Assembly (NCBI GenBank): GCA_965221525.1 | Contig: CBDCSG010000008.1 | Location: 775,857 to 839,856 of the forward strand | Origin: Acidimicrobiales bacterium | GTDB taxonomy: Bacteria; Actinomycetota; Acidimicrobiia; Acidimicrobiales; CATQHL01 | Length of the DNA: 64,000 nucleotides | Direction: 5' to 3' | Notes under the pieces: model-generated | What the model was told of the DNA's origin: nothing | The model's database searches: none | Seen by the model: only the letters and a program-made list of their open reading frames with translations | Program-made: the position numbers and the translations under genes | Shown here: one piece after another, positions 17,353 through 44,234 of the stretch | Layout: each line of letters opens with the position of its first letter | How positions within the stretch are numbered: the stretch's first letter is position 1

Positions 17353-18864
17353 GTGAACGGTCGCCCTGAATCAGAAGACTTGCAGGCACTGGCGGCTGAT
17401 TGTATCGGCGCAGTCTTCGAAGTTCTTGAGACTCATCGCGTAATCCCCCGTCCGCGTCACATGCCATTCGTTCGATGGGGCAGACACTACTTGATTCGTT
17501 GGATAAGTGAGCTGGAGAGCTACATCGCCCTCGAACAGGCGATCTTATCCACATTTCCTTCATCTTTTGATCATGATCCTACACAACCGGGCCGCACAAT
17601 CGAGCAACCGCATTCTTACATATGCAGACTGATCGACGCATGTGTAGCGCTCTGCACCGCGCGAGAGGAAGCCTACTCGCAGCGATCACCATCAGTGATT
17701 GAGTGTATCCAGTCGATGCTGTTGGAGTTGGAGGCAGAGGAGCACGAGTTCGTTTGCTGTCTTGGGGTAAGTGACCTTTCGACTACTGATGGCGAGTCGG
17801 CACTCGTTGGCGATGTGCTCGTTGTTCCAGAACACTACGACGATAAAAGACAGATTATCGACCGAGTTGGCTCAAGCATAGCAGGTGCTGAAGCTGCCCA
17901 GAGGGAGAACTGGTATCTCGATCTCCCGCTCGACACAACACTCCTGTTCACGGATGTTCGAGCGCATAGTACAATGTTTGAACTCAAGTCACTGGAAGCG
18001 CAGGAAGCCTTAAGGACGTTCCTTCTGATTCTGCAACTTCTACAGCCTACTACATGTAGATCACTATTCTGGATCATTGGACCTACAAGCCGACTGAGCC
18101 GCGTAGAGCCGCTGTACTATCCGACTGATCAGTTCATTCGACTTTCTCCCGTCCGTAGGACCGCGACAGTGACTCAGTCGACGTCGACAGTCTTTTCGAC
18201 GATTGGTTCGATGCTCTCAAGTATCGAAAGACACACTTCTTGCTCTTCAGACCGCGCTGACGCCTCAGCGAGACGTCGTAGCGGGCAGATTCTGGTCACG
18301 TCGTGGCAAGTTGCACTCCGGAACTTCTCGCAATCACATGGTGAGCTATTCTGGCATCGGAATCTCGTCGATCTTACGACTGGACTAGAGGCAGCAATGT
18401 CCGATATAGATCAAGCTACTGAGAGTGTCACGTTCCGCCTTCAGACTAGAGCTGCGGCACTTCTAGCAACCGATGACGATCCTCCACGTACGATCTATCG
18501 AGATGTCGGTGTGCTTTATGGTCTCCGCTCAAGAATCGCCCATGGCTCCGACATAGATCTTCGCAAGTTCGACAAGGAAATCAAGAAGCTGTCAACTGCA
18601 TCTGATCAGTCATCGTGGCTTCGCGATTATCACCTGGCCATTGATCGGCTACGAGATCTATTGCGCCGCGCGCTCTTGGCGAGAATGTGCCTATCTATTG
18701 AGGGTCCGGACAGATGGAAGTTCGGTGAGCGGTTCGATATTGACCGACGATTGAGCGATGATCGCGTTCGCAATGAGCTACGAACAAGATGGCGCACTGT
18801 AATGCAAGATGCCGGTGCGTTGGAGGCGACCGAAGCTGCGCTCGAGCCTGATAGCAGGTACTGA
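17353..18864 (+). CDS. Hypothetical protein with C-terminal Apea-like HEPN motif
   Basis: AGGAG RBS then GTG 17353. GVLYGLRSRIAHGSD (R-S-R-I-A-H at nt 18526-18543). Distinctly A/T-richer codon usage than neighbours. Confidence 0.55.
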   Translation: MNGRPESEDLQALAADCIGAVFEVLETHRVIPRPRHMPFVRWGRHYLIRWISELESYIALEQAILSTFPSSFDHDPTQPGRTIEQPHSYICRLIDACVALCTAREEAYSQRSPSVIECIQSMLLELEAEEHEFVCCLGVSDLSTTDGESALVGDVLVVPEHYDDKRQIIDRVGSSIAGAEAAQRENWYLDLPLDTTLLFTDVRAHSTMFELKSLEAQEALRTFLLILQLLQPTTCRSLFWIIGPTSRLSRVEPLYYPTDQFIRLSPVRRTATVTQSTSTVFSTIGSMLSSIERHTSCSSDRADASARRRSGQILVTSWQVALRNFSQSHGELFWHRNLVDLTTGLEAAMSDIDQATESVTFRLQTRAAALLATDDDPPRTIYRDVGVLYGLRSRIAHGSDIDLRKFDKEIKKLSTASDQSSWLRDYHLAIDRLRDLLRRALLARMCLSIEGPDRWKFGERFDIDRRLSDDRVRNELRTRWRTVMQDAGALEATEAALEPDSRY

Positions 18865-20568: not shown

Positions 20569-21267
20569 TCAGTTCTCTTGCGGCAGCGACGGCGGAAGGT
20601 CACTGATGATGCGGGCGCTCTCGACCGAGACGTACACGAGCCGGCGTAGGTGACGGATCAAGTTGTAGGGCTCGTATGCCCAGGCTTCGCATTCGTTTGG
20701 GTCGTCGGTGATCCCTGATGGCTTGTCGTGCTTATGTCTGAGGCTGTCGATCGCCCACTGCAGCGGCGATCGTCCCGAGATCGTGTACTCGTGAGCGTCA
20801 TCCGGAATGCCCACGAGGCGACAGCGAGTGTTGATCTCGAGCACGCTGCGGTCCTGCGTTCGATTCGGCCCTCTGCCCCATGTGAGCTTCTCTATGCGGT
20901 AGGCGCGGGGATCGGTTGTCGGGTCGGCGGCCCCGTCGTTGTCGATTGAGCCGTCGAGATGACAATCCACCCTGTATTCGGGGACATCGTCGTAACCGAT
21001 GTGAAGGTCCATGAGCACGCGGCCCGCGGAGCGGAACGCCTCGAAGTCCGGCGCGAACGGCACCCTCGGCAGGTTCCGCTGTAGGTCGTGCTTGTACTTG
21101 TCGCGCCAGTCGGAGGCGTGCATTACGCCGTACAGATACTCCCAGATGTCGTCCTTCGTGATTTGGGGGCCATATCTGGTTTGGAATTGCTCCAAGCACC
21201 AATCTGTCACATTGTCGCCGCCATCCGCAGACGAGTCTGCCAAGCCGAAATCGAGAGTCTCGGTCAT
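20569..21267 (-). CDS. C-terminal part of the Type ISP R-M enzyme (specificity-domain portion), separated from the main ORF
   Basis: NVTDWCLEQFQTRYG...DIWEYLYGVMHASDWRDKY...NLPRVPF resembles the Type ISP C-terminal domain. ATG 21267 lies 8 nt after the TAG at 21278-21276. Confidence 0.6.
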   Translation of the reverse strand: MTETLDFGLADSSADGGDNVTDWCLEQFQTRYGPQITKDDIWEYLYGVMHASDWRDKYKHDLQRNLPRVPFAPDFEAFRSAGRVLMDLHIGYDDVPEYRVDCHLDGSIDNDGAADPTTDPRAYRIEKLTWGRGPNRTQDRSVLEINTRCRLVGIPDDAHEYTISGRSPLQWAIDSLRHKHDKPSGITDDPNECEAWAYEPYNLIRHLRRLVYVSVESARIISDLPPSLPQEN

Positions 21268-21275
21268 GACGGCGT

Positions 21276-21639
21276 CTACCCTTTTGCTCGGCTGCGGCGG
21301 ACGAACACACGCCCTGCCGGGTCCACGAGATGCAGGTCCGGGAGTTGACCTATCGCGATCGTGGCGAATGTGGTCCGAGTCGACGGACTGCTCACCATGA
21401 TCGCTTCCTCGGCGCGGCGCGGGACTGCTGGCCTGGCCCCATCGTGTGGAGATCGGGAAGTTCCGCCACTGCTAGAACGCCGAAGACCGACATGTTCGAT
21501 CGGCCGGTCACGATGATCGCCTCCGCGGGATGATTCGTGATGGCTGATTCGTTCCGGTTCCGCAGAGGTCGCTGACTCGCGAGCTGGCGAGAGTCCCGAA
21601 TACTGCCCTGTTGTTGGGAGCCGTGACCAGGATTGCGTC
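21276..21639 (-). repeat. Three tandem, diverged 116-nt units, each encoding the same ~35-aa module in a different reading frame
   Basis: Unit-initial D/E-A-I codons start at 21639, 21523 and 21407. Frame-specific stops sit at 21510-21508, 21394-21392 and 21278-21276, all exactly 116 nt apart. Confidence 0.85.
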
Positions 21640-24600
21640 GGTCGGTCGGTCGGTCGGTCGGTCGGTCGGTCGGTCGGTCGGTCGGACGGTCGGACGGACG
21701 GACGGACGGACGGACGGACGGACCTTCGTGCATAGTATTCTCATCCACTGGGGTACTCGGGAAGAGTGCTGTCGATGCTTTGCTTTGGGAGAGGATGCGG
21801 TCGTCGTCATATAGCCAAAGTGTGACGAATGGGCGGTACAACACCTTTCGGATGCGCTCAGGCGAGTACGTGATCCTGTCTTTGCGCTTGAGCGACTGTT
21901 TCAGGGTCGCTGTCCACTTGATCGAATCCAGACTGTCGTTTCGTGTTAGGAGATCAAGGCTCCTTCTGTTTTCGACGTACTCGCGTCGGGCTGCTTCATA
22001 TGCGGAGATTAGTCTTGTAAGTTTGGCTTCGAGTGCATCGCGACTGAACGCGTATACATAGGTGTCGCAACTTGTGGCGACACCGCGGGCGTTGACTCGA
22101 ACTGCGGCTGTCGCGCCGTGGTCGTCGCTGGGCAGACACACCGGTATTGGCAATTCGGCGAAGCTTCCATCTGTGACATTCACCCAGTCATGCTGGTCGT
22201 TGACCGCGACTTTCTTGAACAGATCGTTGCTAATATCTCCGAGATCGTTCAGCCATTGGAGTTTCTCATCAAGCCTTGAGTACGGCGGAACTTCGGTGTA
22301 GTGCAGAGTTGCGTTGTTGGGTCCGAGGCGTTTGGGGTCGCGGACGAGGACTGTGACCTGCACCCCGTTGCGAGAGTGCTGACCAAAGAGCTTGTCGCCC
22401 TCCATTCGATTCTCTTCTCCGGACTTCATAGCGTCACCGCGGAGGTTGATTACGTAGATGTCGCTGAACTCATCCCGCAGGGCCGCTCGCACACCGGTCA
22501 GTGACGGAGCATTCGACAGCGAGTTCGGGTGTACAAGGGCGATGATGCCGGGCTTCTCTCCGTCGTCAGTGGACTGCTGGACTCGGTCGGATGCCCACCG
22601 AAGCGCCTCGATGTAGAGGTTGCCAGCGGCGGGACCCATGCCGACCCCGGTGATCTCTCTGTGCTTCACACCGTAGGTCTCTCGTACGCGCTGTTCGATC
22701 TCGGGGTATTCGATGTTGGGGTTGTCGTCGCCTGATGACCTTTGTCCTGATGACCATGGCGGATTGGTGAGAATTACTCGGATGGGTAGCTTGTTCTGGG
22801 TCCGGGCGCGGGCGGAGTTGTCGTCGAACCCTGGGATGCTGCCTTGGCGCGCGTCGCCGCTGAAGGTATCGCCGAAGACGATGCCGCGGTATTGGCGATA
22901 GTTGGCGTCGAGTCCGCGTTCGGCGGCGGCGGCTTCGATCTTGAGGGCGGCGATGTAGTATGCGAGCAGCACGATCTCGTTGGCGTGTAGCTCGGGCGGC
23001 GCGCAGTCTTGGTGAGCACCTCCGCTGGCGCAGGCGCCCGGAGAACCGTGGCGACGGAATCCGCTGTACTTGCGGATGAGGTCGCCGTCCTCAATGAGTG
23101 GACTGCCGTCGGTTCTCGCGCCGGTGAGCAGGCGGTGTAGGAATGTGCCGGTGCCGGTAAACGGGTCGAGTATGTGGACGTTCTCGCTGGTGAGGCCGTG
23201 GCCGAAGTGTTTGCGGCAGGCTGCGTCGGCAGAGCGCAGCATAAAGTCGACGATCTCGACTGGGGTGTAGACGATTCCGAGCCGGGTGACGGTGGACTTC
23301 ATTGCGTGTGTGAAGAATCCTTCGTAGATCTGCCGGAGCAGGTCGACGGTTTCCGCTGCGCTGTGGGTACTTGCGAGCATTCCTTGCATGGTGCGGTAGC
23401 TGCGCGCGAGGGGTACGAGTAGGTCGCCGAATACGCGGTCAGCGCTGGACGCGTCGGGGTCTGTAGTGGAGGGGGCGTGGGCGTCGGCGAGCGCGTTGAG
23501 GAACCGGTTGATTGCTCGGGAGATCGGGTTGCGGGCGGCAAATTGCGCGTCGGCGAACAGGTGGTCGAACACAGGGATCGTGACGACATGGTGTGCGACC
23601 ATTTGCTGCGCTTCGGTGTGTGTGAGGTGCGTTCCGACGGCTTGGCGCATGGCGGCCACGAACTCTTCGAACGCCGCCTGGCAGGACGGCTCGGCGATCA
23701 GGGCGGCGGTCTTGCGTTCCACGCGGGCGCATACTTCGGCGGCGCGCTGTCCCCAAGTGGGCCACATCTGGCGGTCGCCGCATTCTTCGACGATCTTGGA
23801 GGCGACCGCTTCTTCGAGCCGTCTCACGACGCGAAGGCGGAGTTCATCTTGGTCGCCGAAGTCGCCGTCGGGGACGATCTCGGGGTCCTCGGGTCTCGGG
23901 GGCTGGATGATGATCGGCGAGGCAACCCGCGGGTTGTTGACCCAGTAGTCGACGCGTTCGTCGTGGCTCCGCAGAGCGCGCACCACCTCCCAGACAGCTT
24001 TGAAGTCGCTGCTGTCGAGTACTTCGGCGTCGGTCATCTCGGAGCCTTCGGGCACGATGACAGGGATGACGACGTAGCCGAAGTCCTTGCCTTCGGCTTT
24101 GCGCATGGCGCGTCCGACGGCTTGGGTCACCTGCACGGGGGAGCGGCGGGGCTCCAGGAAGACCACAGCGTCGAGCGCGGGCACGTCCACGCCTTCGGTG
24201 AACAACTGGGCGTTGCTGATCACGCGGCCCCGGGGCGGGCCTGTGGTGTCGCGACTTTGGCGTTCGAGCGCGCTGAGCGCCTCTGAGCGCGCCACGGCGC
24301 GTGTGGTGCCGTCCACGTGGTCCACGTCGAGGCCGAGGAACCGGCGGCCGGTGTTGGCTTGGCGGACATCGGAGGCGATGGCCTCCCACAGCCGGCCCTC
24401 CAGGCCCTCGTCGGCGAAGTACGCGTCCTCCGAGCACGCCTGGGAAGACCTGACCGTGTTGGTGAACGCAATCGCAGTGCGCAGATGCCGATGCGCTGCG
24501 TCGTCAGGAATCTCGCCCGCGACGGTGCCCGGAGCGCGAATCTCGCTGGTGGGTGTGGCCATGGCGTCCCAACAGCCAAGCAACTTGGTGGCGTAATCGG

Positions 24601-25963
24601 AGTCCACCTTGGCTTTGCGGGCGCGATCCGACGCTGTGATCTCGGTGACACGCTTGCCGGCGCCGTGCATCGCGGCTTCTCGCTCGTTGACCCCGACGAC
24701 CAGCACTCGATAGTCCGAGATGAGGTCACGCTCGATGGCCTCCACGAAGCTCATCTCATAGAAGACCGGCCCGAACACCGACTCGTCGTCCATCGAATAC
24801 GAATCGCCCGCCGCGCCGGGCTCCGCCGTGGCGCGTTCTTCGATCTTGCGGCGCTGCCGCTCGGTGAACACCCGCGGCGTCGCTGTCTGATACAGCCGCT
24901 TCAGTGCGGGCACGTGCTCATCGCGATGGACCATCACGAACGCCGACGCCGCCGCTTCCTTGCTCGCCGCGCCGATCCCCGTCGTGCGATGCGCCTCGTC
25001 GCAGACGACAAGCTCGAACACGACCTCGGGTGCGTGCTCCGCGAGCACCTCCGACAGCAGCGGCACCGACTGGTACGTGCAGAACCACACATGCATCGCC
25101 TCATCGGTCACCGGCGACTGCAGAGCTTCGGTGATCTGTTCCCGATTCGTGCTCGGCGGAGCGAGCAACTCAGCGAGATCCGACTTGGTGGCGCTGGCGC
25201 GCCGACCGGCAGTCACGTCGGAGCACACCGCGCCGTAGCGATGCGGCACCGACCGCTGCGCTGCCCAGACCCGCATCGTCTGGGCCATCAACGCGATCGA
25301 CGGCACCAGATACAGCACCCGCCCGCCCCGGCCGGCCTGCTGCTCAGCGGCCCACAGCGCGACCAGCGACTTGCCGGTGCCGCACGGCATGTGCACCTGC
25401 CCCCGGTCGTGCTCCTCGAAGCCCTTGGCGATCTTCTCCAGCGCCTCGACCTGGTCGCTGCGAGGTTCGGCGCGCTCGCCGAACTCCACGGCGTCAGGAT
25501 CCTCGAAGCACTCCGACCAACGCACCGGCCAGCGATCCAGCTCGTAGCCGCTGAGCACCTCGCAACGCTTGGTCGCCCTCTCGACCTTGCTCCACGACTG
25601 CGCCGTCAACCCACCGGTGCTCACCAGCAGACTGCTTGTGAACGGCTCCTTGCCCGCCTCCGCCAGGAAGCTGTCGATATCGCTGCTGGGCACCTTCGCG
25701 CCCGCCCCGTACAACTTGCACTGGATAGCGCACACCCCACCGCCAGACTCCTCCGCGACGAGGTCCGCACCCGAATCGGGGCCGTAGCCGAACCGGGCGC
25801 GGCCCGGCCAGTCCGCCCACAACCACACCCGTACGAAACGATCGCTGTACTGCGGATTCCGCTCAAACGCCGCACGCATCACCCGCTCGAAGATGCGGCC
25901 CCGCTCCTGTGGGGAGTCGCTCACTCGCTTCAGGGCCTTGAAGACTTCAGGCTCGAAGAGCAT
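21392..25963 (-). CDS. Type ISP restriction-modification enzyme (Mrr-like nuclease + SF2 helicase-like ATPase + N6-adenine methyltransferase), main ORF in the present repeat state
   Basis: Nuclease GADLVAEE...AIQCK. Helicase motifs HMPCGTGKS, VVCDEAHR, QTATP, QAVGRAMR. MTase motifs ILDPFTGTGTFL and NPPW. YRPF... begins the C-terminal domain. Start probably ATG 25963 (MLFEPEVF); the ORF track begins at 26104. Confidence 0.8.
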   Translation of the reverse strand: MLFEPEVFKALKRVSDSPQERGRIFERVMRAAFERNPQYSDRFVRVWLWADWPGRARFGYGPDSGADLVAEESGGGVCAIQCKLYGAGAKVPSSDIDSFLAEAGKEPFTSSLLVSTGGLTAQSWSKVERATKRCEVLSGYELDRWPVRWSECFEDPDAVEFGERAEPRSDQVEALEKIAKGFEEHDRGQVHMPCGTGKSLVALWAAEQQAGRGGRVLYLVPSIALMAQTMRVWAAQRSVPHRYGAVCSDVTAGRRASATKSDLAELLAPPSTNREQITEALQSPVTDEAMHVWFCTYQSVPLLSEVLAEHAPEVVFELVVCDEAHRTTGIGAASKEAAASAFVMVHRDEHVPALKRLYQTATPRVFTERQRRKIEERATAEPGAAGDSYSMDDESVFGPVFYEMSFVEAIERDLISDYRVLVVGVNEREAAMHGAGKRVTEITASDRARKAKVDSDYATKLLGCWDAMATPTSEIRAPGTVAGEIPDDAAHRHLRTAIAFTNTVRSSQACSEDAYFADEGLEGRLWEAIASDVRQANTGRRFLGLDVDHVDGTTRAVARSEALSALERQSRDTTGPPRGRVISNAQLFTEGVDVPALDAVVFLEPRRSPVQVTQAVGRAMRKAEGKDFGYVVIPVIVPEGSEMTDAEVLDSSDFKAVWEVVRALRSHDERVDYWVNNPRVASPIIIQPPRPEDPEIVPDGDFGDQDELRLRVVRRLEEAVASKIVEECGDRQMWPTWGQRAAEVCARVERKTAALIAEPSCQAAFEEFVAAMRQAVGTHLTHTEAQQMVAHHVVTIPVFDHLFADAQFAARNPISRAINRFLNALADAHAPSTTDPDASSADRVFGDLLVPLARSYRTMQGMLASTHSAAETVDLLRQIYEGFFTHAMKSTVTRLGIVYTPVEIVDFMLRSADAACRKHFGHGLTSENVHILDPFTGTGTFLHRLLTGARTDGSPLIEDGDLIRKYSGFRRHGSPGACASGGAHQDCAPPELHANEIVLLAYYIAALKIEAAAAERGLDANYRQYRGIVFGDTFSGDARQGSIPGFDDNSARARTQNKLPIRVILTNPPWSSGQRSSGDDNPNIEYPEIEQRVRETYGVKHREITGVGMGPAAGNLYIEALRWASDRVQQSTDDGEKPGIIALVHPNSLSNAPSLTGVRAALRDEFSDIYVINLRGDAMKSGEENRMEGDKLFGQHSRNGVQVTVLVRDPKRLGPNNATLHYTEVPPYSRLDEKLQWLNDLGDISNDLFKKVAVNDQHDWVNVTDGSFAELPIPVCLPSDDHGATAAVRVNARGVATSCDTYVYAFSRDALEAKLTRLISAYEAARREYVENRRSLDLLTRNDSLDSIKWTATLKQSLKRKDRITYSPERIRKVLYRPFVTLWLYDDDRILSQSKASTALFPSTPVDENTMHEGPSVRPSVRPSDRPTDRPTDRPTDRPTDRRNPGHGSQQQGSIRDSRQLASQRPLRNRNESAITNHPAEAIIVTGRSNMSVFGVLAVAELPDLHTMGPGQQSRAAPRKRSW
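21637..21720. repeat. Tetranucleotide microsatellite (GTCG)12-GACG-GTCG-(GACG)7, 21 units
   Basis: Direct count in the sequence, 84 nt. Translated in the main ORF as PSVRPSVRPSDRPTDRPTDRPTDRPTD. Confidence 0.95.
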
Positions 25964-26203
25964 CCCCTGAGCCGGCTGCCCGCCCGCGCCTTCGGTCGTC
26001 GTGTGCACCGCTACCACTGTCCGCCTTCTCGCTCTGCCCCGATGTTCAAGATCTCGGAGTCTCACCGTGCCCTGGTGGTTGCCGGATTCCTGTCGGGCAC
26101 GCAACGGTAGCAGCGCGGTTGACCTGGGACCCGTAGGAGCGACCGAGACGACGGGGGCCGGTAAGCGGAAAGCGCGCTGCCGCCCACCGGCCCACTCAGG
26201 AGA

Positions 26204-27460
26204 CTAGGGGGCCCTCGGTGTCGTGATTTGGTAGTTCGCAGGTGCGTGACTCGGGCTTGGGCAGAAGGTTCGAAAATCACATGCCGCACAAGTTGCGTCA
26301 TCACGACAGTTGGGAGACCACGAGCCGAGAATGTCCTGACCGTCGGCTTCTGAAACGATGTCTTCCTCAATCCGCCGAACGACATCGTCGAACTTCTCGA
26401 GAGCTACTTCGACACTGTCGGAAGAAATCGGGATCACCCTGATCGCGCGACGCAGACGGTAGTCAAGCGACAATTGACTGGTCCCTTCCCCGCGCCTCCA
26501 TCGTCGAATCACGCGTTCATCAGCCGAACCCTGCGCGGGAATCACGTCTGTTGTGCCACGCTCAATCCCTTGCTTGAGCTTGACCATCTCCTCGTCGCCT
26601 GGCGACAACTCGTTGATGTAGATCAAGACCCCAGCCGCGACTTGGGGAGCGGAAGGTTGACGCCGCCGTAGCCACGCATATGTCTGGATCTGCCACTCTC
26701 CCTGTTCCCAGTAACTCTCATCGACGAGAGGCCGTCGAGTTCCCTTGTAGTCAACGATCACTTCGAACTCGCCACTTAGCTCTGGGCACAAGGTCCGGAT
26801 CTGTCGACAAATCGGATTCTCGTCTGAATCGGTCGATAGACTGACGTTGGTCAACACATCGATGACGCCGTGCACCTCGTAGTTTTCACAGCGTAGCTCT
26901 ACGGCGCTTTGGCCGACCCTTCGAGTACCGATTACCTGCTGCTCGGCATCTACAATCAGCGGAAACAGATGGGGTCCAAGTTGATTAACGGCATGCTCGA
27001 CCCGTTCGTACGCTGAGTCTCGAGCCGCCGTACTCCGAGCCTGTTTTCCTTGCCTCTGTAACGCCTGCTCGACCGTATCGGCAAATCGCCCGATGTCGTG
27101 GTCGATCCATGCAGGCGGATCCGCACCCCATGGACGTGGCGTACATGGCCAGGGAAAGCTAGGGACCTCGGCTCCTGTCGCTTGTTGATCGGACCAGAAG
27201 CGATAGGCCATCTCAAGTGTTCCGTGCAAGAACTCCCCGAACCACAACTGCACCGGTCGTGACGGGGGAAGTGCGCTGCCGTTGTGATAGCGGTACTGCA
27301 GCCGGCATCGAAGATATGAGAGGAGATCACCCGTGAGCGAATACGATGGAACGATGTGATCAGCAGACTTACGTTGCAGTTCCACTTCTAAATCTCCAAG
27401 AATGGTGTCGATACTGTCACAGGCGGCCTCCTGTGGTCGTGAGGCTGTTGCCACGACCAA
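26204..27460 (-). CDS. Cas4/AddB-like PD-(D/E)xK nuclease with 4-Cys (Fe-S type) cluster
   Basis: GVIDVL..., VIVDYKG (D-x-K), QIQTYAWL (QxxxY). N-terminal Cys (LRCRL) plus C-terminal CAACDFRTFC (CX2CX5C). Alternative GTG start at 27385 with a GGAG RBS, 2 nt after the helicase stop. Confidence 0.65.
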   Translation of the reverse strand: MVVATASRPQEAACDSIDTILGDLEVELQRKSADHIVPSYSLTGDLLSYLRCRLQYRYHNGSALPPSRPVQLWFGEFLHGTLEMAYRFWSDQQATGAEVPSFPWPCTPRPWGADPPAWIDHDIGRFADTVEQALQRQGKQARSTAARDSAYERVEHAVNQLGPHLFPLIVDAEQQVIGTRRVGQSAVELRCENYEVHGVIDVLTNVSLSTDSDENPICRQIRTLCPELSGEFEVIVDYKGTRRPLVDESYWEQGEWQIQTYAWLRRRQPSAPQVAAGVLIYINELSPGDEEMVKLKQGIERGTTDVIPAQGSADERVIRRWRRGEGTSQLSLDYRLRRAIRVIPISSDSVEVALEKFDDVVRRIEEDIVSEADGQDILGSWSPNCRDDATCAACDFRTFCPSPSHAPANYQITTPRAP

Positions 27461-29754
27461 GTCTCATCGCGTCGCCAACCCAGTGCAATATTCTTGGTAT
27501 TGGTATTGTAGCGCAATTGATTGTCATGGCCCACGAGCAAAAGGACACACTGGGCACGACTGAACGAGACATAGTAGAGCCGTGTTAGATCGTCAAAGGT
27601 ACGGTCCATCGCAGTGCGCTGACCTCTAAGCTCAGCACTGAGATGGGGTTCCATGTCGTCCTCGGCTACCACAACGTTCGATATGTCATCGGGGAATCGC
27701 CTGAATCGATGCATCGGATGATCGGTCCGGAACCGTGTGCCGACATCGACGATGACTAGTGGAAACTCAAGACCTTTGGCTTGATGGATCGTCATCAATT
27801 GCAGCATGTCGCGCGGAACGCTTGGCATAATGTCCTCGTCTACCTGGATTTCATCTAGAGCAATCGGAACGAGAGCATCCCTGATCAAGCTTTGCCTGCT
27901 ACGGATCAAGTGGACTCCTTGATTGTGCCTTCCGTCGTTCTGGAGAAGACGCATTCGATATGGAGAGATGCCAGCTGAACTCGCAACAATCCGAGTAATA
28001 GCTTCTAGCCAAACTTGATGTTCAGGTTCTCGCTGGAATTGAGGGAACCAAGTGACTAGAGCGAATATCAGTTCCAAGACCGGGAAGTCGGCTGGGAAGG
28101 AGCTTGCCACTCCACCCGAAGAAACGTGTTGCCACGCTCCGATGTAGCCACCGAGTCCGTTGCGTTCGGACGGTATCGGATTGGAATCAATGAACAGGTC
28201 GGCTAAATCCCGCCAGCGCGTGAGAGCGGAAAGGGCCTCATTGGTCAACTGGTTGCGTGCCCGCATCTCGTCGACGGTAGAACCCAGAGGATCGATCGCT
28301 AGGAGCAAGAGTCCCAGCAGACATCCAACGTCGTCAATTGTCCGAAGCGCTTGACCTCTCGGATTGAAGATGCGTAACCCACGCCTGTGCATCTGCTCTC
28401 TCAGCAGGCTTGGAAATCGAACGATTAGGTCGCCGTTGAAACGATTATAGTCGAGCTCATTCACTGAGTGAGATAGGAAAACGACATCGCCCAAGTCCCC
28501 ACCATCGGGGAGTACGAGTTCCTCGTCGCAATCATCAAGATGCACGGCTCGTTCTTGGGTAAGTGTCCCAAGAAACTTGGCTAGATCACGTGCGAGCAAC
28601 TGCTCATCGCCGCGAAACATACCTAGGACTGGTATCCTGCCGGATTGTCTCGTTGCGAGTACTGGAGCCTTGCCGGGCTGTACGCGGGCTGTCTGATATC
28701 CGGGATCCGCTGAGATGTGCGCGTTTACGAATTCAATGATCTCAGGACGGGAACGAAAGTTCCGGGTCAGGTCGACTCGGCGAGGTGTCCGGTCGGTGGC
28801 AGCATGACACCGTGACGCAAACTCCGTGAACAACTCAACGGATCCACCCCTAAATCTGTACATCGCCTGGTCGTCGTCGCCAACGACTGTCCCGGATAGC
28901 GCGGGATTGCGTAAGAGGTGAAAGTAGATCGCCTCCTGAAGTGGGTTGGTGTCCTGGTATTCGTCTATGAGAACAGCTCGGAGATCCGTGAGCCAATTGT
29001 CCAAGGCTTCTGCTTGAAGTCGGTTCAGGAATTGCTCTTCGAGCAGTGAGAAGTCGAAGAGGTTTGTGCGAGATGCCTCGTCCTTGTGGTCAAACAACAT
29101 GTCGACGACTGTGGCCTCTGCCTCACCTTCTGCTGCATAGCTGTCCAGATCGACACGGTCTTGGATAAGGCGCTCCAAGAGGCGCTTGGTCTCTCCTAGG
29201 GCTGCTGCTTGATTGCGAGGCGGACGGCCGTCGAAAGAGTGCCGCGCTAACAATGCGGCAATAGCGTCTCGTCTGGTGTAGTAGTGGCGTGCGAATGCTC
29301 CGCGTCGAAGAATCAGGAGGCTCGTGGCTGGGTCGGTGACGCCGGGCGGAGTCGTGCCGAGTTCGCGGAATTCTGTAAGCACGCTATGGATGGTGCTATC
29401 CAAGGTGTCGATTCTGCACCTGTTCAAGTCGACATGATCAAGATCATGCTGCTGAGAAAGCTCCTTATGCAAGGTGCCGCCCCAATCCAACCAGCGGCTG
29501 CGGAGTTCACGAGCGGCTCTCCGCGTGAACGTTGTCATCAGAATGCTCTCAGGTAGGAGATTGTCGACGTAGACGAAGTGAAGGGCTCTCAGTACAAGGA
29601 CACTCGTCTTGCCCGACCCCGGCCCCGCCACGAGATGAAGAATCGGATCAAGCCCCTGCGTGATCGCCTCAGCCTGGGCCCGGTTCCCTGGATCCCGAAG
29701 ATTGCGCCCTAGAGTCTCGTCAATGAGCGCGAGGAAGTCGATACTACTAATCAT
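27388..29754 (-). CDS. UvrD/Rep-family SF1 helicase
   Basis: AGPGSGKTS, TFTRRAAREL, VLIDEYQDTNP, VGDDDQAMYRFRGG, TIHQAKGLEFPLV, YYVSFSRAQ. Confidence 0.8.
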   Translation of the reverse strand: MISSIDFLALIDETLGRNLRDPGNRAQAEAITQGLDPILHLVAGPGSGKTSVLVLRALHFVYVDNLLPESILMTTFTRRAARELRSRWLDWGGTLHKELSQQHDLDHVDLNRCRIDTLDSTIHSVLTEFRELGTTPPGVTDPATSLLILRRGAFARHYYTRRDAIAALLARHSFDGRPPRNQAAALGETKRLLERLIQDRVDLDSYAAEGEAEATVVDMLFDHKDEASRTNLFDFSLLEEQFLNRLQAEALDNWLTDLRAVLIDEYQDTNPLQEAIYFHLLRNPALSGTVVGDDDQAMYRFRGGSVELFTEFASRCHAATDRTPRRVDLTRNFRSRPEIIEFVNAHISADPGYQTARVQPGKAPVLATRQSGRIPVLGMFRGDEQLLARDLAKFLGTLTQERAVHLDDCDEELVLPDGGDLGDVVFLSHSVNELDYNRFNGDLIVRFPSLLREQMHRRGLRIFNPRGQALRTIDDVGCLLGLLLLAIDPLGSTVDEMRARNQLTNEALSALTRWRDLADLFIDSNPIPSERNGLGGYIGAWQHVSSGGVASSFPADFPVLELIFALVTWFPQFQREPEHQVWLEAITRIVASSAGISPYRMRLLQNDGRHNQGVHLIRSRQSLIRDALVPIALDEIQVDEDIMPSVPRDMLQLMTIHQAKGLEFPLVIVDVGTRFRTDHPMHRFRRFPDDISNVVVAEDDMEPHLSAELRGQRTAMDRTFDDLTRLYYVSFSRAQCVLLLVGHDNQLRYNTNTKNIALGWRRDETWSWQQPHDHRRPPVTVSTPFLEI

Positions 29755-31492
29755 CCCGAGAACCCCGTCCGATCTGACTGTAAAGCATCAACGTGTTGTG
29801 TGCCCCTCGCCTTCGATTGCGATTCGCGCCGCGAAAGATCGCAATGTGGATACCAATGTCCCTACAGAAGTTGCAATCGCAGTGGCGCCAAGGTCGTTCT
29901 AGTAGGGTCCGGTGGTATCTGCTCCGCATCGATTGGGTCTCGCTGCGTCTAGCCAAGTTGCTGTCGTAGCTCAGTAGTGCGTCCAGCACGAAACGAAGCG
30001 GTACTTCCTCCCTGTCGTACTGACAGAGCAGTCTGAGAACATCGCGTTCCTCTTGCCTTACTGTGTCAAGATCGGCATTGACCTCTTCTAATCGCCGCAG
30101 GACACGGCCATCCGTGGTCATTGGAACGCGCAACGCCGCGTACCATTCGCCTCTTGCGCTCAGATAGTTCTGATCGGAGCGTAGCCATGCCTTACGAAAG
30201 TATGTGGCGCTGTCAAAACTGTCCACCTTGAGTTCTCGGAAGAGGCTCTGCAGCTTCGGCCGGAAAATGCCGAAGAGATGAATCCATGGGCGTTGAGGCA
30301 GTCTTTCCGCAGCCGCTATCACACTCATGACAATGTCACGTATTGCTTTGTCGGGCAGAGGCACGAGGGCACCAACGGCCATGTGGCGGTAGCCGAGATC
30401 ATGATAGTGGTATACGGAGCTTGCGTAGTCGTCAGGGTCAAGCCCGTGCAAGATGCCGACGGGCGTGAATTGTGCCTTTCGCTGCCTTGTCGCTGCAATA
30501 AACCTCTCTGCATTCTGGCGCGTAATCCTGATTCGTTCAGATCGCTCATCGGATGAGAGCGGGATCTTCCTCCCGCCCCTCGTGATTGTCGCAACAGGCA
30601 TATGGTCCACTGACGCACCAAAATCGAATCCGTATGACTCGTATAATGCCACCGCGTTGTCGACTTCGAGAGTTGGATAGTCCTCGTTGACGTAGCTAAA
30701 CGCTCCGCAATCGCCGAAGAGATATTGATCCTCCTTCAGGCCGAAGTGTTGCCGAATCGGTGGTGGCGCGAGGGCAGTCTTCTCAGTACCTTCTGGCCTT
30801 CGGAGGAGACCTTTCTGTGCTTGACATTGGGCAAGACTGAGGAGAATGCCGTCTGCGATTCTTGCTGGTCTGATTAGGTCGGCGCAGTGTCGATCAACCC
30901 GTTCTGCCCGCGTGGGGGCCGAGAACCTGTCGGCCTCGAAGTCGAAATAGGGGTCCAGTAGGTCATCCCAATCCGGCAAGAAATACAGATACTTGCCACT
31001 ACCCCCCCTCATGTGGAGCTTCGCTCGACGTATGGCGTGTGAGTGTTCGAGGAAAGTCTTGACTTGAGACAGCTTCTCGCCGATTGCGCCGGCGAAGATT
31101 GTCGGGGTTATGGCAATCTTATCGAGCGCCGGGTGGATAGCGGGCAAGTAATCTCGCCCGAGTGCGATATCAATCGTGGTATGGGTGTCAGCCCATTTTG
31201 TGAGCACCCTCGAGCATTCGTTGGCTCGAGCGGTAGCTGTCTGCCGATCCATCCTCTTGTCGTAGTTGGGGATGCGCTTGAAGATGCCGAACAATCCGTG
31301 CTCCGCGGAGAGGACACCGACAGACACGTTGGTAGGCCAGTGATGTTCTCTCAAGAACTTCCGCAAGACTCGATACGCTGGCCCGTCATAGCGATCAAGG
31401 GCGGGCAGGAGTCCTGCGGAATCTCGCTTGAGGTCCGAGCAGCCAAGAATGAGCAGCTTCTGACCGTCCGATGGGGCGCACGATGTTGGCAT
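29747..31492 (-). CDS. Fusion of a DUF6884-like N-domain with a tRNA-guanine transglycosylase (TGT)/DpdA-like domain
   Basis: N-terminus LLILGCSDLKRDSAGLLPALDRYDGPAYRVL. TGT-like GDCGAFSY (compare DSGGFQ), IHLFG, DSFDSATY. Zn motif HCDCNFC...GAHN (CxCxxC...H). AAGGAAA RBS. 8-nt overlap with the helicase start. Confidence 0.55.
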   Translation of the reverse strand: MPTSCAPSDGQKLLILGCSDLKRDSAGLLPALDRYDGPAYRVLRKFLREHHWPTNVSVGVLSAEHGLFGIFKRIPNYDKRMDRQTATARANECSRVLTKWADTHTTIDIALGRDYLPAIHPALDKIAITPTIFAGAIGEKLSQVKTFLEHSHAIRRAKLHMRGGSGKYLYFLPDWDDLLDPYFDFEADRFSAPTRAERVDRHCADLIRPARIADGILLSLAQCQAQKGLLRRPEGTEKTALAPPPIRQHFGLKEDQYLFGDCGAFSYVNEDYPTLEVDNAVALYESYGFDFGASVDHMPVATITRGGRKIPLSSDERSERIRITRQNAERFIAATRQRKAQFTPVGILHGLDPDDYASSVYHYHDLGYRHMAVGALVPLPDKAIRDIVMSVIAAAERLPQRPWIHLFGIFRPKLQSLFRELKVDSFDSATYFRKAWLRSDQNYLSARGEWYAALRVPMTTDGRVLRRLEEVNADLDTVRQEERDVLRLLCQYDREEVPLRFVLDALLSYDSNLARRSETQSMRSRYHRTLLERPWRHCDCNFCRDIGIHIAIFRGANRNRRRGAHNTLMLYSQIGRGSRDD

Positions 31493-31989: not shown

Positions 31990-32162
31990 TGGGGTGGTGG
32001 CGCCGAGACGGTCGGCATGTCGGTGAGCTTCGACTTAGAGTCGTCCTGGGCCATCGTCAGCAGGAATCGTCGGTCCACCTCCGAGAGCGTCTTCCGGGTG
32101 GGGGCGAAGGCCATCCGGCCGATACGCCACTCGCGGATCTCCTCGACGTCGCCACTTTGCAT
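31990..32162 (-). pseudogene. Fragment of an HTH-containing regulator/ATPase gene
   Basis: TLSEVDRRFLLTMAQDDSKSKLTD matches the fuller fragment at 39214-39480. Confidence 0.45.
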
Positions 32163-33243
32163 CTGGTCGATGGTGATCAGCAGGCCCGTCTCGTGCTCGG
32201 CGAGCGCGTCGCCGAGATCGGGCAGGGCTCCCCTGTAGCCGTTGGCGGGCTTTAGGAGTTTTGTGAGCTTTAGTCGTTTTGTCAGCTTTAGTAATTTGGC
32301 TCTGGACTCGCCCGTGGGTTCCTCACGATCAGCGGCAACTCGGGGGCTGGGCGCAGTGGGTGGGTTCGGGGACTGTCCACCGGTCTGATGCGATTACGCG
32401 AGGTAGCGCGCCTCGCCGGGCCGGGGGAACCCCACCGAGCACCCGGTTCGTCCCGTACCCGGGATGGATCCCTCGTCGCCTGCGCCCGCAAGGCGCTCGC
32501 GCGGGCGGGCGGTCTACAGGAGGAAGAACGATGAGCCGAGCGGAGACCCGGCCGTGGGACGCGGCCGACCATCTGGAGACCACCGGGGGCATGGTCGCCT
32601 ACCTGGAGGCGGCTCTGGAGCAGGACGATCCCAGGTCGTGGCGGCCGTGGTCGGTGACATCGCCCGAGCACAGGGGATGACCAAGGTTGCCCCCGAGGCC
32701 GGGCCGGGCGGGGAGAGCCTCGACAGGTGAGCTCTGAGTTCAGCCCAGCGGGCGCGGGCCTGGCGGTGGGGTTCGGTGGCTGCCGATTCGTCCAGAACCT
32801 CAAGACGCACTGTGCCCGAGGCGGCCAGTCGGGCGATCACAGCGGGGAGTTCCTCCCAGGGTGTCTCGACAATGGCGGGACCGGCGCGCAGGACCTCCAG
32901 CACGGCGACCTCCTCTGGTGTGAGCGAGTGGACCAGCCGATCGATCGGGCGCTGTGTGAAGCGCACTCCCGGACAGGGTCCTGGCGCTCGGCCGGGCACC
33001 GCGGCGAGGAACGTCGCCGGAACCTGCGACGTGAGGCCCAGCCAATTCGCCGCTGTGACCCCGGCGGGACCCGAGCCCCGCCCACCGAGTCGGAGAGCGA
33101 CCTCGTCGATTCTGGGCGGCGACATGCCCAGTGGCGTCGTTGTCCCCTTCCAGTACAGGCCCTTGCGGACTCGCAAGACGTCGCCGGCGGCGCACAGGCG
33201 GCAGAACGCCGACTCGACAGCGCTGCGCGACCCGCCGACGTCG
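32015..33243. repeat. Left copy of a ~1.23-kb direct repeat (HTH fragment, higA-like, abiEi/DUF6088-like)
   Basis: Aligns by eye with 39335-40566 with few substitutions. Confidence 0.8.
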
Positions 33244-33784: not shown

Positions 33785-34433
33785 TCAGGTGCGCGTGGCG
33801 AGGAAGGCGCGGAGGTGGTCGGTCAGGAGTTCAGGTTGGTCGATGGGGATGAGGGTGTAGCTGTCGTCGATCCACACGATTTGCGTGTTCTGGAAGTGGT
33901 CGGCGAGTCGTTCGGCGTGGGTGGGGGGCATGAGTTTGTCTTCTCGTGCCCAGATGATGAGGACCGGGCCGGCGAAGGTGCGCTGCTGGTCGGCCCAGGC
34001 GAGCAACTGCTGGGGTTTGGGGACGTTGCGGAGGTACTTGGCGAGGTCGCGGCGGACCTTGGGGTCTTGGCGCAGCGGACCGATCCAGCTCCTGAAGAGG
34101 TCCTCGGGAACCCGCTGCTTGGACAGGGCGCCGAAGAGGGAAGGGGTCGTTGCAGACCACGGTGACCTGGTGCAGGTCCAGTTCGGCGAGGAACTCGGCG
34201 AGGCTGGTGGCGAGCGCCGGGAGGGAGAGGTCGGCGTCGTCGGGCATCGGCGTGGTGTGCGCGCCGAACGGCAACTCCGGGACGACGCAGCGGTAGCGAT
34301 CCCCGAGGCCGGCGACGACAGCGTCCCACAGGGTGCCGTTCATCAACACCCCGTGCAGCAACACCACCACCGGCCCGTCGCCGCCGGTGTCGGAATACAT
34401 GAGGCCGGCGGTCGTCGGCCCCTCCAGCTGCAT
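33785..34433 (-). pseudogene. Alpha/beta hydrolase with frameshift and internal deletion
   Basis: N-terminal part (...VVVLLHGVLMNGTLW...VTVVCND) and C-terminal part (LLAWADQQRTFAGPVLIIWAREDKLMPP...) are in different frames. Total length is shorter than usual for the fold. Confidence 0.65.
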
Positions 34434-37961: not shown

Positions 37962-39011
37962 GTGCCAACGCGCGCCGCCATCAGCAGAATCGTCGAGCGG
38001 ATGCTCGCCGCCGTTCCCCCTGAGGTACTCGAGGACCTGCGGGACGAGGACCCCGCCACCGCAGTCGAGGTGCACTACCCACCCGTACGCGTCCTTCCTC
38101 TGCCACCCGAGAACATCACCAGCGGGGACTGCTCCGTACACGGCTACTACGAGCAATTCCTCGACCCGGCGCGGCCGAGCATCCTCTACTCAAGCGCGGT
38201 CACACCGGAGCGGGCGCGGTTCACGATCCTCCACGAACTCGGACACCACATTTTCGTCACCCCCGGAGACGGGCTCCTCAGTCATGTGGACCAAGTCGCC
38301 GGTGCCCGGGGTGATCCCAACGAGGTCGAAGAAGAGGCGTGTGACCAGTTTGCCGGACAGGTGCTTGTGCCTACAGAGCTACTGGAGCAGATCATCGGCA
38401 ATGGCCCAGTGAAGCCGAGGCACGTCCTAGAAGCGCGCCAGTTGACGAACGCGAGTTGGGAAGCAGTCGCCGTCCGAGTGGCGAACTATCCGGAGAGGCG
38501 GACAGCGGTCGTCTTGATCCGGGAGCAGGGACGGGTGTCGTTCGTGGCGAGGAACGGTCTACAGGCATGGCCTCGCGACTGGTTGGTCCAGCCGAGAGGA
38601 CCGCTTGACCGGGCGCTTCGATACGACTCCAAGTGCAGGCCCGATGTCTACCGCTATGGCCTCGCGGGAGCGGAGAATCTGTACTGCGACACCGCGCGGG
38701 TTGACCATCGTCTCGCGGTCGCGGTCATGGCACCGCAACGCAGCGACGGCGGGCTCACGGTCCTCGAGCCTGTCGACCCTACGTGGAAAACGCGGGAGCA
38801 GTCGTGCGAATGGTGCGGTGACGAGCGCGACTTCGGGTGGTGCGACTATTGCCGTGGGCGAAGATGCCGAACGTGTCGCCGGTGCGGCTGCCAGAAACCG
38901 ATCGAGAACCCGGTCTGCCCCGAATGCCATCTTGAGAATCCCTTACGGCCGGGAGCGCTGGTCTGCCGAGACTGTGAAGCCGACGGGCTGGGGCCTGACC
39001 GCCGCCCGTGA
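37962..39011 (+). CDS. ImmA/IrrE-family (M78) metallopeptidase with Cys-rich C-terminal zinc-ribbon-like tail (CapP-like position)
   Basis: HELGHH zinc motif. C-terminal CEWCG...CDYCRGRRCRTCRRCGC...CPEC...CRDC. Confidence 0.7.
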   Translation: MPTRAAISRIVERMLAAVPPEVLEDLRDEDPATAVEVHYPPVRVLPLPPENITSGDCSVHGYYEQFLDPARPSILYSSAVTPERARFTILHELGHHIFVTPGDGLLSHVDQVAGARGDPNEVEEEACDQFAGQVLVPTELLEQIIGNGPVKPRHVLEARQLTNASWEAVAVRVANYPERRTAVVLIREQGRVSFVARNGLQAWPRDWLVQPRGPLDRALRYDSKCRPDVYRYGLAGAENLYCDTARVDHRLAVAVMAPQRSDGGLTVLEPVDPTWKTREQSCEWCGDERDFGWCDYCRGRRCRTCRRCGCQKPIENPVCPECHLENPLRPGALVCRDCEADGLGPDRRP

Positions 39012-39213: not shown

Positions 39214-39480
39214 TCAGCACCGGGCGGCGTGGTGGGCGAGGGTGATGCGGCCCCAGCCTGTGGGGAGGATCATGCCGGCGCGCAGGAGTCGTTGCCGGTA
39301 GACGCCGGAATACCCGGTAGCGATGCCGAGGCGGTCGGCGATGTCGGTGAGCTTCGAGTCGGTGTCGTCCTGAGCCATCGCCAGCAGGAATCGTCGGTCC
39401 ACCTCCGAGAGCGTCCTCCAGGTGGGGGGCGAAGACCATCCGGCCGCTGCGCCGCTCGCGGATCTCCTCGATGTCGCCAC
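39214..39480 (-). pseudogene. C-terminal HTH fragment of a regulator/ATPase gene
   Basis: TLSEVDRRFLLAMAQDDTDSKLTDIADRLGIATGYSGVYRQRLLRAGMI. The upstream part is in another frame. Confidence 0.45.
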
Positions 39481-39850
39481 TCTGCTTGTCGTCGACGGTG
39501 ATCAGCAGGCCCGTCTCGTGCTCGGCGAGCGCGTCGGCGGGATCGGGCAGGGCTCCCCTGTGGCCGTTTGTGGGCTTTAGGAGTTTTGTGAGCTTTAGTC
39601 GTTTTGAAGTCTTTAGTAGTTCGGCTCCGGACTCGCCCGTGGGTCCGTCACGATCAGCGGCAACTCAGCGGCTGAGCGCAGTGGGTGGGTTCGGGGACCG
39701 TCCACCGGTCTGATGCGATCACACGAGGTAGCGCGCCTCGCCGGGCCGGGGAACCCCACCGAGCACCAGGTTCGTCCCGTACCCGGATGGAACCCTCTTC
39801 GCCTGCGCCCGCAAGGCGCTCGCGCCGGCGAGCGGTCTACAGGAGGAAGA

Positions 39851-40054
39851 ACGATGAGCCGAGCGGGAACCCGGCCGTGGGACGCGGCCGACCATCTGGA
39901 GACCACCGAGGACATGGTCGCCTACCTGGAGGCGGCTCTAGAGCAGGACGATCCCCAACTCGTGGCGGCCGTGGTCGGTGACATCGCCCGAGCACAGGGG
40001 ATGACCAAGGTTGCCCCCGAGGCCGGGCCGGGCAGGGACAGCCTCTACAGGTGA
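39851..40054 (+). CDS. HigA-family antidote-like protein, C-terminally truncated (67 aa)
   Basis: MSRAGTRPWDAADHLETTEDMVAYLEAALEQDDPQLVAAVVGDIARAQGMTKVA...SLYR stops inside the expected HTH. Confidence 0.5.
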   Translation, partial: TMSRAGTRPWDAADHLETTEDMVAYLEAALEQDDPQLVAAVVGDIARAQGMTKVAPEAGPGRDSLYR

Positions 40055-44049: not shown

Positions 44050-44234
44050 ACCGCAAAATATATCATATGGATACCGCAATATATGTGATCATAATCCCGC
44101 AAAATACGCGGATGGAATACCGCACAATGTGCACTGTCCATGCCTTGGTGCGGGGCTCACGGGATCGTTGTGGCCTGTGGCTACTGTCCGGCCGGTTGGG
44201 TCTGCCGGCTCGGGCGGGCCAGACTTGGGGGGCC

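Follow-up and report, generated by a model that had tools for sequence, protein, structure and literature searches.

What kind of system is formed when a putative DNA base-exchange enzyme, a helicase and a nuclease are encoded side by side? The question is raised by three genes of an Acidimicrobiales bacterium, found at positions 26204-31492 of a 64,000-nucleotide stretch of contig CBDCSG010000008.1 (assembly GCA_965221525.1), hereafter the window. From the sequence alone, the original prediction had taken them for an unnamed defence or DNA-modification module, in which a base-exchange enzyme is paired with a helicase-nuclease. The match of gene 1 to DpdA, the conservation of the trio and its defence context support this proposal, with the defence function being inferred. 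The best reading, judged from sequence, is that the unit represents a Dpd-type 7-deazaguanine system whose architecture is new and whose effector module is a different one. More specifically, we consider it moderately probable that the three genes constitute a compact, horizontally mobile Dpd-type modification-restriction module, with the helicase-nuclease pair replacing DpdD-K. The genes, and the two domains of gene 1, are as follows (aa, amino acids).

29747-31492, minus strand: gene 1, 581 aa, a DUF6884 (DpdC-like) domain fused to DpdA, a predicted DNA-guanine/preQ0 transglycosylase
31013-31465, minus strand: N-terminal DUF6884 domain of gene 1, aa ~10-160, with invariant C18-xxx-K22 and L61-S-A-xx-G66
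29771-30985, minus strand: DpdA TIM-barrel domain of gene 1, aa 170-574, with D261 (in GDCGAF), D296, D427, F265 and a zinc site C538/C540/C543/H565
27388-29754, minus strand: gene 2, 788 aa, a UvrD/Rep-type superfamily 1 (SF1) helicase with intact ATPase motifs
26204-27385, minus strand: gene 3, 393 aa from a GTG start at 27385, a PD-(D/E)XK nuclease with a Cas4/AddB-type four-cysteine (predicted 4Fe-4S) set

Residues 170-574 of gene 1 matched the NCBIfam DpdA equivalog NF041059 with 336.9 bits (cut-off 200), and the score against the PADLOC DpdA model was 311.5 bits. A profile of 20 members of the gene 1 family aligned over the whole length of PDB 7UI4, the DpdA of Salmonella Montevideo (E=1.5e-84). 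Foldseek with the AlphaFold model of gene 1 also returned 7UI4 as the top match (E=8.9e-26), followed by tRNA-guanine transglycosylase (TGT) enzymes at ~1e-7. In Salmonella Montevideo DpdA, catalytic roles have been shown or proposed for Asp95 (acid/base), Asp256 (nucleophile), Asp130, His181 and Phe99 (Gedara et al. 2023, PMC10164549). These were found to correspond, on HMMER alignment to 7UI4, to D261, D427, D296, H349 and F265 of gene 1, respectively. D261, D427, D296 and F265 are invariant in the 20 family members, as are LLILGCSDLK, LSAxxG, GDCGAF and C538-x-C540-xx-C543...H565; position 349, a histidine here, is glutamine in most of them. By sequence and structure match gene 1 is a genuine DpdA, and its activity is predicted on that basis. 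An exact-sequence look-up of gene 1 returned no identical record. The original prediction had described gene 1 as TGT-like and proposed profile and fold searches. These yielded a DpdA equivalog above its cut-off and a TIM-barrel match to 7UI4; the TGT fold, the catalytic GDCGAF and the zinc motif were all retained, but the label proved too weak, since the DpdA equivalog threshold is passed.

That gene 1 might be a queuosine/archaeosine-type tRNA transglycosylase, with unrelated DNA repair genes as its neighbours, is hardly credible. Weak matches to tRNA TGT models do exist (PF01702, 30 bits; TIGR00432, 38.7 bits), and relatives of gene 1 carry the NCBI product name 'tRNA-guanine transglycosylase DpdA'. 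The scores are, however, far below the cut-offs (350 for TIGR00432; 20.1 bits against 47.6 for a second tRNA TGT model), whereas that for DpdA is far above. In addition, the structural match to 7UI4 is ahead of the tRNA enzymes by 18 orders of magnitude in E-value, and the gene is strictly linked to DNA enzymes across phyla. An action on tRNA, which had been offered earlier as an alternative, is therefore poorly supported in view of the DpdA-type enzyme, its DNA-enzyme partners and the linked preQ0 supply genes.

The DUF6884-like nature of the N-terminus of gene 1, recognised earlier by eye, was confirmed using PF21818, which matched residues 1-165 alone with 33.3 bits (gathering score 30) and scored 29.9 bits within the full-length protein. 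DUF6884 has a YaaA-like 'cantaloupe' fold, with CxxxK and LSAxxG as signature motifs (PMC11701544), and a pocket into which bases are flipped is predicted for DUF6884/YaaA-like proteins. In the AlphaFold model the N-terminal domain is separate (pLDDT 89), and its fold resembles those of phage DUF6884 proteins (TM 0.6-0.7). The score of the domain alone, the invariance of both motifs and the fold all place it in DUF6884. When the PDB was searched by sequence with the profile of the N-terminal domain, only noise was returned; Foldseek retrieved 2Q07 (E=2.5e-4) and E. coli YaaA, 5CAJ (E=1.8e-3).

The best fold match in the PDB is thus not YaaA, but 2Q07 (AF0587, listed with 'unknown function'). 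2Q07 may belong to the ArcS C1/DUF5591 family, an assignment that serves as a lead only. The catalytic C1 domain of ArcS carries a PC-x3-K motif, which resembles the CxxxK of DUF6884, and acts on the preQ0 nitrile. A relationship between DUF6884 and ArcS, if real, would suggest that both act on the nitrile by a cysteine-based chemistry. No ArcS2 model was retrieved in a viral fold search with the N-terminal domain.

DUF6884 also connects the fused domain with the known Dpd systems. According to the GATOR-GC study, DpdC belongs to the Pfam family DUF6884. In a canonical Enterobacter dpd cluster, the gene directly upstream of dpdA is a PADLOC DpdC (470 bits), which matches DUF6884 and, weakly, YaaA, and its family carries C10-xxx-K14 and L83-S-A-G-x-G88.

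Gene 2 matched PF00580 with 132.5 bits, along with UvrD_C and UvrD_C_2. The full set of UvrD/Rep motifs that had been read from its sequence held up in 64 homologues, where all the SF1 motifs are conserved, AGPGxGKT, DEYQDTN, VGDDDQxxYRFRG and MTIHQAKGLEF among them. With motifs Q, I, Ia and II-VI present in addition to PF00580 and UvrD_C, gene 2 is placed among the UvrD/Rep SF1A helicases. It falls far under the equivalog cut-offs for UvrD, PcrA, Rep, AddA and RecB, and its best PADLOC matches are GajB-like UvrD helicases at 96 bits.

Gene 3 matched PF12705 (PDDEXK_1) with 49.7 bits (cut-off 22). D201, D237-Y-K239, Q256, C52 and C392-xx-C395-x5-C401 are each retained by at least 90% of 64 homologues, and Y260 by at least 70%. 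Both the nuclease motifs and the four cysteines of the RecB/AddB/Cas4-type PD-(D/E)XK nucleases are therefore present, and an Fe-S cluster is predicted. Gene 3 had been described as a Cas4-like Fe-S nuclease. While the nuclease motifs and the cysteine set are indeed conserved, the likeness to Cas4 is a resemblance only, as the score against TIGR00372 (cas4) is 23.5 bits where the cut-off is 65. Membership of Cas4 was rejected on this ground and on the lack of cas genes nearby, the common features being the PD-(D/E)XK core and C...CxxCx5C only.

Are the three genes a unit, or neighbours by chance? Gene 1 has hundreds of relatives, and the 120 best-scoring are nearly all full length (519-607 aa, mostly 565-590) with 56-89% identity. 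One genome per species was scanned for relatives of gene 1, which gave 76 loci, and their genes were then grouped by open reading frame (ORF) clustering. The helicase was present in 64 of these loci and the nuclease in 63, while the next most frequent gene family occurred in at most 13. The three genes were strictly adjacent, in the order g1-g2-g3, in 47 loci; nine had an insert between g1 and g2, and seven were rearranged. The loci come from Latescibacterota, Chloroflexota, Planctomycetota, Acidobacteriota, Bacillota, Nitrospirota, Proteobacteria, Actinomycetota, a Thermoplasmata archaeon and others. Two divergent helicase-nuclease subfamilies, with ~40-58% and ~25-30% identity to the window proteins, were found beside the same fusion family, and the nuclease and cysteine motifs are kept in both. 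A reciprocal metagenome search starting from the nuclease recovered five loci, with the helicase adjacent in all five and a DpdA homologue nearby in four; the fifth duplicates one of these four and is truncated. The expectation that the trio would be conserved as a unit, mostly adjacent and in the same order, was thus borne out.

In 31 of 49 loci the G+C content of the unit is below that of the flanking DNA, and in one it is above, which fits repeated horizontal transfer. On viral contigs the fusion was found at a single locus in 2.9 million, and a plasmid collection held no copy. The three genes are a conserved unit, present as such in ~60 genomes of many phyla, and the unit looks both mobile and cellular.

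Two further gene families recur at these loci. One is a gene pair encoding a ~640-aa protein without family match and a HerA-type ATPase (PADLOC HerA, 270 bits), observed in 10 loci (L001 11448-15362; L005, L008, L011, L014, L016, L032, L036, L042 and L057). In Latescibacterota this pair is inserted between the fusion and the helicase, and in four loci it replaces the helicase-nuclease pair. The fusion enzyme may have in this pair an alternative effector module, or an additional one. The other is a family of 300-360-aa proteins that lies beside the unit in 10 loci (L017 15351-16274 and nine others) and has no Pfam, PADLOC or NCBIfam match. It is encoded mostly right after the nuclease and, in three loci, right before gene 1; in some loci a HAD-type hydrolase (L020 16283-17065) accompanies it. 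These proteins could be an extra enzyme of deazaguanine metabolism.

The arrangement in the window itself was checked at the level of the ORFs. All three are intact and co-directional, and three coupled minus-strand genes are found as originally predicted. The 8-nt overlap between genes 1 and 2 (29747-29754) is also real, and it recurs in the closest relatives, L079 and L080. Two starts had been considered for gene 3, and the features that bear on the choice are these.

26204-27460, minus strand: ORF from the alternative TTG start of gene 3 at 27460, 418 aa
27394-27397, minus strand: GGAG ribosome-binding site of gene 3, with an 8-nt spacer to the GTG, read from the sequence

The GTG at 27385 lies 2 nt past the TAG stop of gene 2 (27390-27388). 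An alignment of 64 homologues shows conservation starting at about residue 26-28 of the TTG ORF, and an independent gene caller gives the nuclease of L079 and L080 as 393 aa. Because of this onset of conservation, the 393-aa calls in the relatives and the well-placed ribosome-binding site, we prefer GTG 27385, one of the two starts originally proposed, as the start of gene 3. A scan for promoters and terminators was uninformative, with no promoter-like sites and fewer terminator-like sites than expected from shuffled sequence.

The A/T-rich composition remarked on earlier was also verified: the G+C content of the unit is 55.7%, compared with 68.2% for the rest of the window, and at third codon positions it is 0.59-0.62 in the unit genes against ~0.85-0.96 in host genes. 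The unit is compositionally foreign and horizontally acquired. No tRNA gene that would mark an integration site was found within the window. Such a strongly foreign composition would also be expected if the unit were a recently acquired silent or inactive passenger in this genome, for example in a host that makes no preQ0. The lack of que or yhhQ genes in the window, and a mosaic island with duplicated segments bordering the operon and a split Type ISP gene next to it, point the same way. Against this, the three ORFs are intact and their catalytic motifs are all preserved, and the arrangement is likewise intact in relatives with 77-89% identity, a sign of purifying selection in this lineage. 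As the contig is ~1.08 Mb long, que genes may moreover lie beyond the window. We regard an inactive passenger as decidedly unlikely.

How might the three proteins work together? In the proposed modification-restriction module, the DpdA domain would replace guanine by preQ0, a precursor of queuosine, in the double-stranded DNA of the host, a step well supported by homology. The exchange would follow the double displacement of TGT/DpdA enzymes, with D427 as the nucleophile and D261 as the general acid/base. The DUF6884 domain, which keeps the Cys and Lys of CxxxK, would then process the inserted base in place, most likely converting the dPreQ0 nitrile to the amide dADG. It may also provide DNA binding or base flipping, letting DpdA act without the DpdB ATPase. 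Going by gene linkage, the UvrD-type helicase and the Fe-S nuclease would form an ATP-driven restriction arm that degrades incoming unmarked DNA. The preQ0 would be supplied by queCDE/folE or by a YhhQ transporter; such genes lie beside the unit in about one third of genomes, and in the present genome they would lie outside the window. A more ambitious version, which we put forward tentatively and think unlikely, is a self-sufficient, DpdB-independent system. Here the fusion enzyme would place sparse dADG (or other 7-deazaguanine) marks, and the processive UvrD/nuclease motor would degrade whatever DNA it had loaded onto until a mark stopped it. The modified base would act in a Chi-like manner, as an epigenetic signal of self, and would not block a cleavage site; the DUF6884 domain would contribute both nitrile chemistry and base flipping, for which DpdB-dependent enzymes require an ATPase.

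A link with preQ0 is seen at several loci. Among the 76, QueC was found in 13, QueD/PTPS in 10 and a YhhQ-type preQ0 transporter (Vut_1) in eight, and QueC and YhhQ rank among the most frequent immediate neighbours of the unit. Two loci, both recovered by way of the nuclease, connect the unit with the standard Dpd arrangement. In L082 the helicase and nuclease converge on a yhhQ - DUF6884 (145 aa, 47.6 bits) - dpdA operon, where DUF6884 and dpdA are the unfused counterpart of gene 1. The second, L086 (metagenome contig Ga0209515_10000001, 5615-15497), was observed to be a hybrid Dpd locus. Its order is helicase, nuclease, a 308-aa DUF6884 protein, DpdB, DpdA, a second DndB-like protein, QueC, a radical-SAM QueE-like protein and QueD. 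Of these, the DUF6884 protein shows weak similarity to DpdC of the canonical type (E=4e-5), and DpdB and DpdA match NF041060 (cut-off 300) and NF041059 with 438.9 and 530.6 bits, respectively; no DpdD-K was found within the fetched flanks. The helicase-nuclease pair of L086 sits where a standard dpd modification module would have its restriction operon.

L086 bears on two other explanations of the pair. One is that the module only modifies DNA, the helicase-nuclease opening or processing it for DpdA in place of DpdB, with a mark that would shield host or mobile-element DNA from other nucleases or act epigenetically. Canonical DpdA requires DpdB, yet DpdB is missing from the window and the 76 loci; the helicase is the sole ATPase of the unit, and the 8-nt overlap of genes 1 and 2 suggests stoichiometric co-production. 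However, since L086 possesses a bona fide DpdB and the pair together, the pair is unlikely to be a mere substitute for DpdB and is better seen as an effector. Phage DpdAs are also reported to insert preQ0 when expressed alone, intact Fe-S nuclease motifs in 64 homologues would be hard to explain for a helper of base exchange, and restriction and defence genes abound in the neighbourhoods. It is consequently a minority possibility, and an unlikely one.

The other explanation is a modification-dependent, Type IV-like defence, in which the DpdA/DUF6884 protein would read or covalently trap 7-deazaguanine phage DNA and recruit the helicase-nuclease, the host DNA being unmarked. We find this very unlikely: the whole base-exchange catalytic apparatus is invariant, the linked QueC, QueD, QueE and YhhQ make or import free preQ0, which fits a writer and not a reader, and in L086 the pair accompanies a canonical writer module that is complete (dpdCBA+queCED). 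It does have the merit that phages with 7-deazaguanine are common and that defence proteins against modified bases exist. Most loci, the window included, are without nearby preQ0 genes, and the predicted base flipping of DUF6884/YaaA-like proteins would also suit a reader.

Several observations weigh against the preferred reading of the unit as a Dpd-type modification-restriction module. Salmonella DpdA requires the DpdB ATPase (PMC10164549), so that DpdB-independent activity has to be assumed here; tblastn with Enterobacter DpdB as query found no DpdB in the window or the 76 loci, and of the loci analysed L086 alone carries one. At least one of QueC, QueD and YhhQ lies within 10 kb in only 24 of the 76 loci, and no homologue of these three or of DpdB occurs within the 64-kb window, in agreement with the original prediction that dpdB and preQ0 synthesis genes are missing from it. 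Some loci without the helicase-nuclease pair are truncated contigs, but among the fusion loci that lack it, four carry the HerA-type ATPase and the ~640-aa protein and three carry neither. The remaining points concern DpdC. The fused N-terminal domain matched none of the PADLOC DpdC models, and its hhalign comparison with canonical DpdC, aligned through LSAxxG, was not significant (E=0.11); tblastn with canonical DpdC gave no match to the fused domain either. For the first two reasons we term the domain DpdC-like and not DpdC. On sequence grounds it is not an orthologue of canonical DpdC, and the kinship appears distant. Its chemistry could differ from nitrile hydration, or the domain could be DNA-binding only. 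The earlier statement that no dpdC is present holds insofar as there is no canonical DpdC, but it is misleading, since a DUF6884 domain with the same CxxxK and LSAxxG motifs is fused to DpdA.

How does the unit compare with systems already described? The dpdA-K restriction-modification system of Salmonella enterica serovar Montevideo was reportedly described by Thiaville in 2016. Canonical Dpd, with eleven genes, has been described as larger and more complex than any other restriction-modification system known, and both its mode of restriction and the reason for its DpdB requirement are unresolved (PMC10164549). The unit shares with it an equivalog-level DpdA with the same catalytic residues, a DUF6884-family partner (DpdC being of that family too), a presumed preQ0 dependence (que and yhhQ genes are often adjacent) and an island-borne, horizontally mobile character. 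It differs in having three genes (5.3 kb) instead of 11 (~20 kb), in a DpdC-like part that is a divergent N-terminal fusion of ~150 aa where DpdC is a separate protein of ~318 aa, and in lacking DpdB. A UvrD-type helicase and an Fe-S nuclease stand in place of DpdD-K. As to membership of canonical Dpd, DpdA is present, while DpdB and DpdD-K (SNF2/DEAD helicases, a PLD nuclease and others) are absent. DpdD, DpdG, DpdH and DpdI had no match in the window or the 76 loci, and matches to DpdJ, DpdK, DpdE and DpdF were sporadic (1-3 loci per gene, five loci overall, none in the window). A degraded canonical dpd island was rejected, there being no remnants of DpdB or DpdD-K in the window.

Phage and viral modules combine DpdA1-4 and preQ0 genes, with or without ArcS2, Gat-QueC and DpdL/M/N (PMC10516641). 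Like the unit, they possess DpdA without DpdB, and a second enzyme that acts on the inserted preQ0 can accompany it (PMC10516641). In contrast, the window enzyme is of the bacterial DpdA type, and the unit is nearly absent from viral contigs and carries a helicase-nuclease, which the phage anti-restriction modules lack.

The helicase-nuclease pair invites comparison with AddAB, AdnAB, RecBCD and UvrD-Cas4 fusions, with which it shares the combination of an SF1 UvrD-like motor and a RecB-family PD-(D/E)XK nuclease bearing the four-cysteine Fe-S set. UvrD-Cas4 fusions have been linked to Type III restriction-modification or Dcm and proposed to be ancillary parts of defence (PMC5704561). Here, however, the two activities reside on separate polypeptides, the scores are under the AddA, RecB and Cas4 cut-offs and the partner is DpdA; AddAB or RecBCD orthology was rejected, as the scores are far under the cut-offs. 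The Cas4 survey contains no occurrence of TGT, transglycosylase or queuosine (PMC5704561). Gabija resembles the unit in that the best PADLOC matches of gene 2 are GajB-type helicases, but GajA (the OLD/Toprim ATPase-nuclease) is missing and an Fe-S PD-(D/E)XK nuclease and a DNA-modifying enzyme are found instead. Gabija was accordingly rejected, since only GajB-like helicase matches were obtained and the neighbours are DpdA and a PD-(D/E)XK nuclease. BREX-related capture (BRC) comprises seven components, namely PglZ, DUF6079, STAND, DUF4007, HerA/FtsK, GNAT and TGT (PMC12839542). It too has recruited a DpdA-like TGT, without DpdB or DpdC, into another defence scaffold, and 10 of our loci have a HerA-type ATPase by the fusion. 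BRC differs in having no UvrD/Cas4-like pair and reportedly no DpdC-like domain, and identity with it was rejected because the components differ and none of its seven is in the window.

In the searchable literature, including DpdA papers of 2024-2026 and with incomplete coverage, we came across neither a DpdC-like::DpdA fusion nor a DpdA-UvrD-Cas4-like unit. Within that same coverage, the claim that the trio is not a named system stands. PADLOC models catch the DpdA part only, and NCBI names gene 1 alone.

The surroundings of the unit were also consistent with a role in defence. As predicted, it lies directly upstream of a Type ISP gene in a defence-rich island, with AbiLi/AriA-like, PDC-S19, PDC-S01, DUF4365, E1-like and CapP-like genes in the same island. 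The following defence-type genes of the island were located.

3917-5209: AbiLi/AriA-like ATPase, 298 bits
12846-14147: PDC-S19, 291 bits
35258-36826: E1-like ThiF protein
37962-39011: CapP-like M78 peptidase
42703-44079: PDC-S01, 191 bits

L079 and L080 have ResIII and N6_N4 methyltransferase genes as neighbours. The flanking genes across loci include ResIII, Eco57I/Type IIG, methyltransferases, AriA-like ATPases, DISARM DrmMI/DrmD, HEC candidates and DarT-associated NADAR. A survey of neighbourhoods for known defence genes, as had been proposed, thus shows the unit flanked by restriction or defence genes in the window, in L079 and L080 and in other loci.

A few features of the window were noticed besides. 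The Type ISP gene (20569-26104, minus strand) is seemingly split. A 1570-aa ORF contains Mrr_cat_2, ResIII, ISP_coupler, N6_Mtase and profile positions 4-112 of Type_ISP_C and ends after a PT/PTDR repeat, while a separate 232-aa ORF (20569-21267) covers Type_ISP_C positions 167-332. At the break lies a run of a (GTCG)n tetranucleotide repeat (21629-21728), and the split may reflect either a frameshift pseudogene or a switch for phase variation. The upstream edge of the operon bears direct repeats that have diverged: the segment 31717-32003 has a second copy at 33786-34073 (80-91% identity), and 32017-32676 has one at 39341-40000 (89-96% identity). An alpha/beta-hydrolase fragment is part of this, and Abhydrolase_1 genes are also found upstream of the unit in L079 and L080. 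The edge repeats suggest a recombination mosaic or a shared insertion context.

A second patch of low G+C (53-56%) holds a 503-aa ORF (17353-18864, plus strand) without a Pfam, PADLOC or NCBIfam match. Beside it lies a 965-aa DUF4365 (restriction-endonuclease-like) protein with HEAT repeats (14237-17134, minus strand), and the two may be another uncharacterised defence gene pair. Finally, the segments 5914-7093 and 9312-10491 are duplicates at ~89% identity, each with a 357-aa ORF (6020-7093 and 9418-10491), and are probably a gene duplication or an insertion sequence.

If the proposed reading is true, the unit would be a naturally minimised, three-gene Dpd system, and as such a tractable model for the mode of restriction and for the DpdB question. 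It would also represent a new type of defence system, one that goes uncalled in current annotation and is distributed over many phyla that have been little studied. The fused enzyme, for its part, could serve as a compact tool for the site-specific insertion of 7-deazaguanine into DNA.

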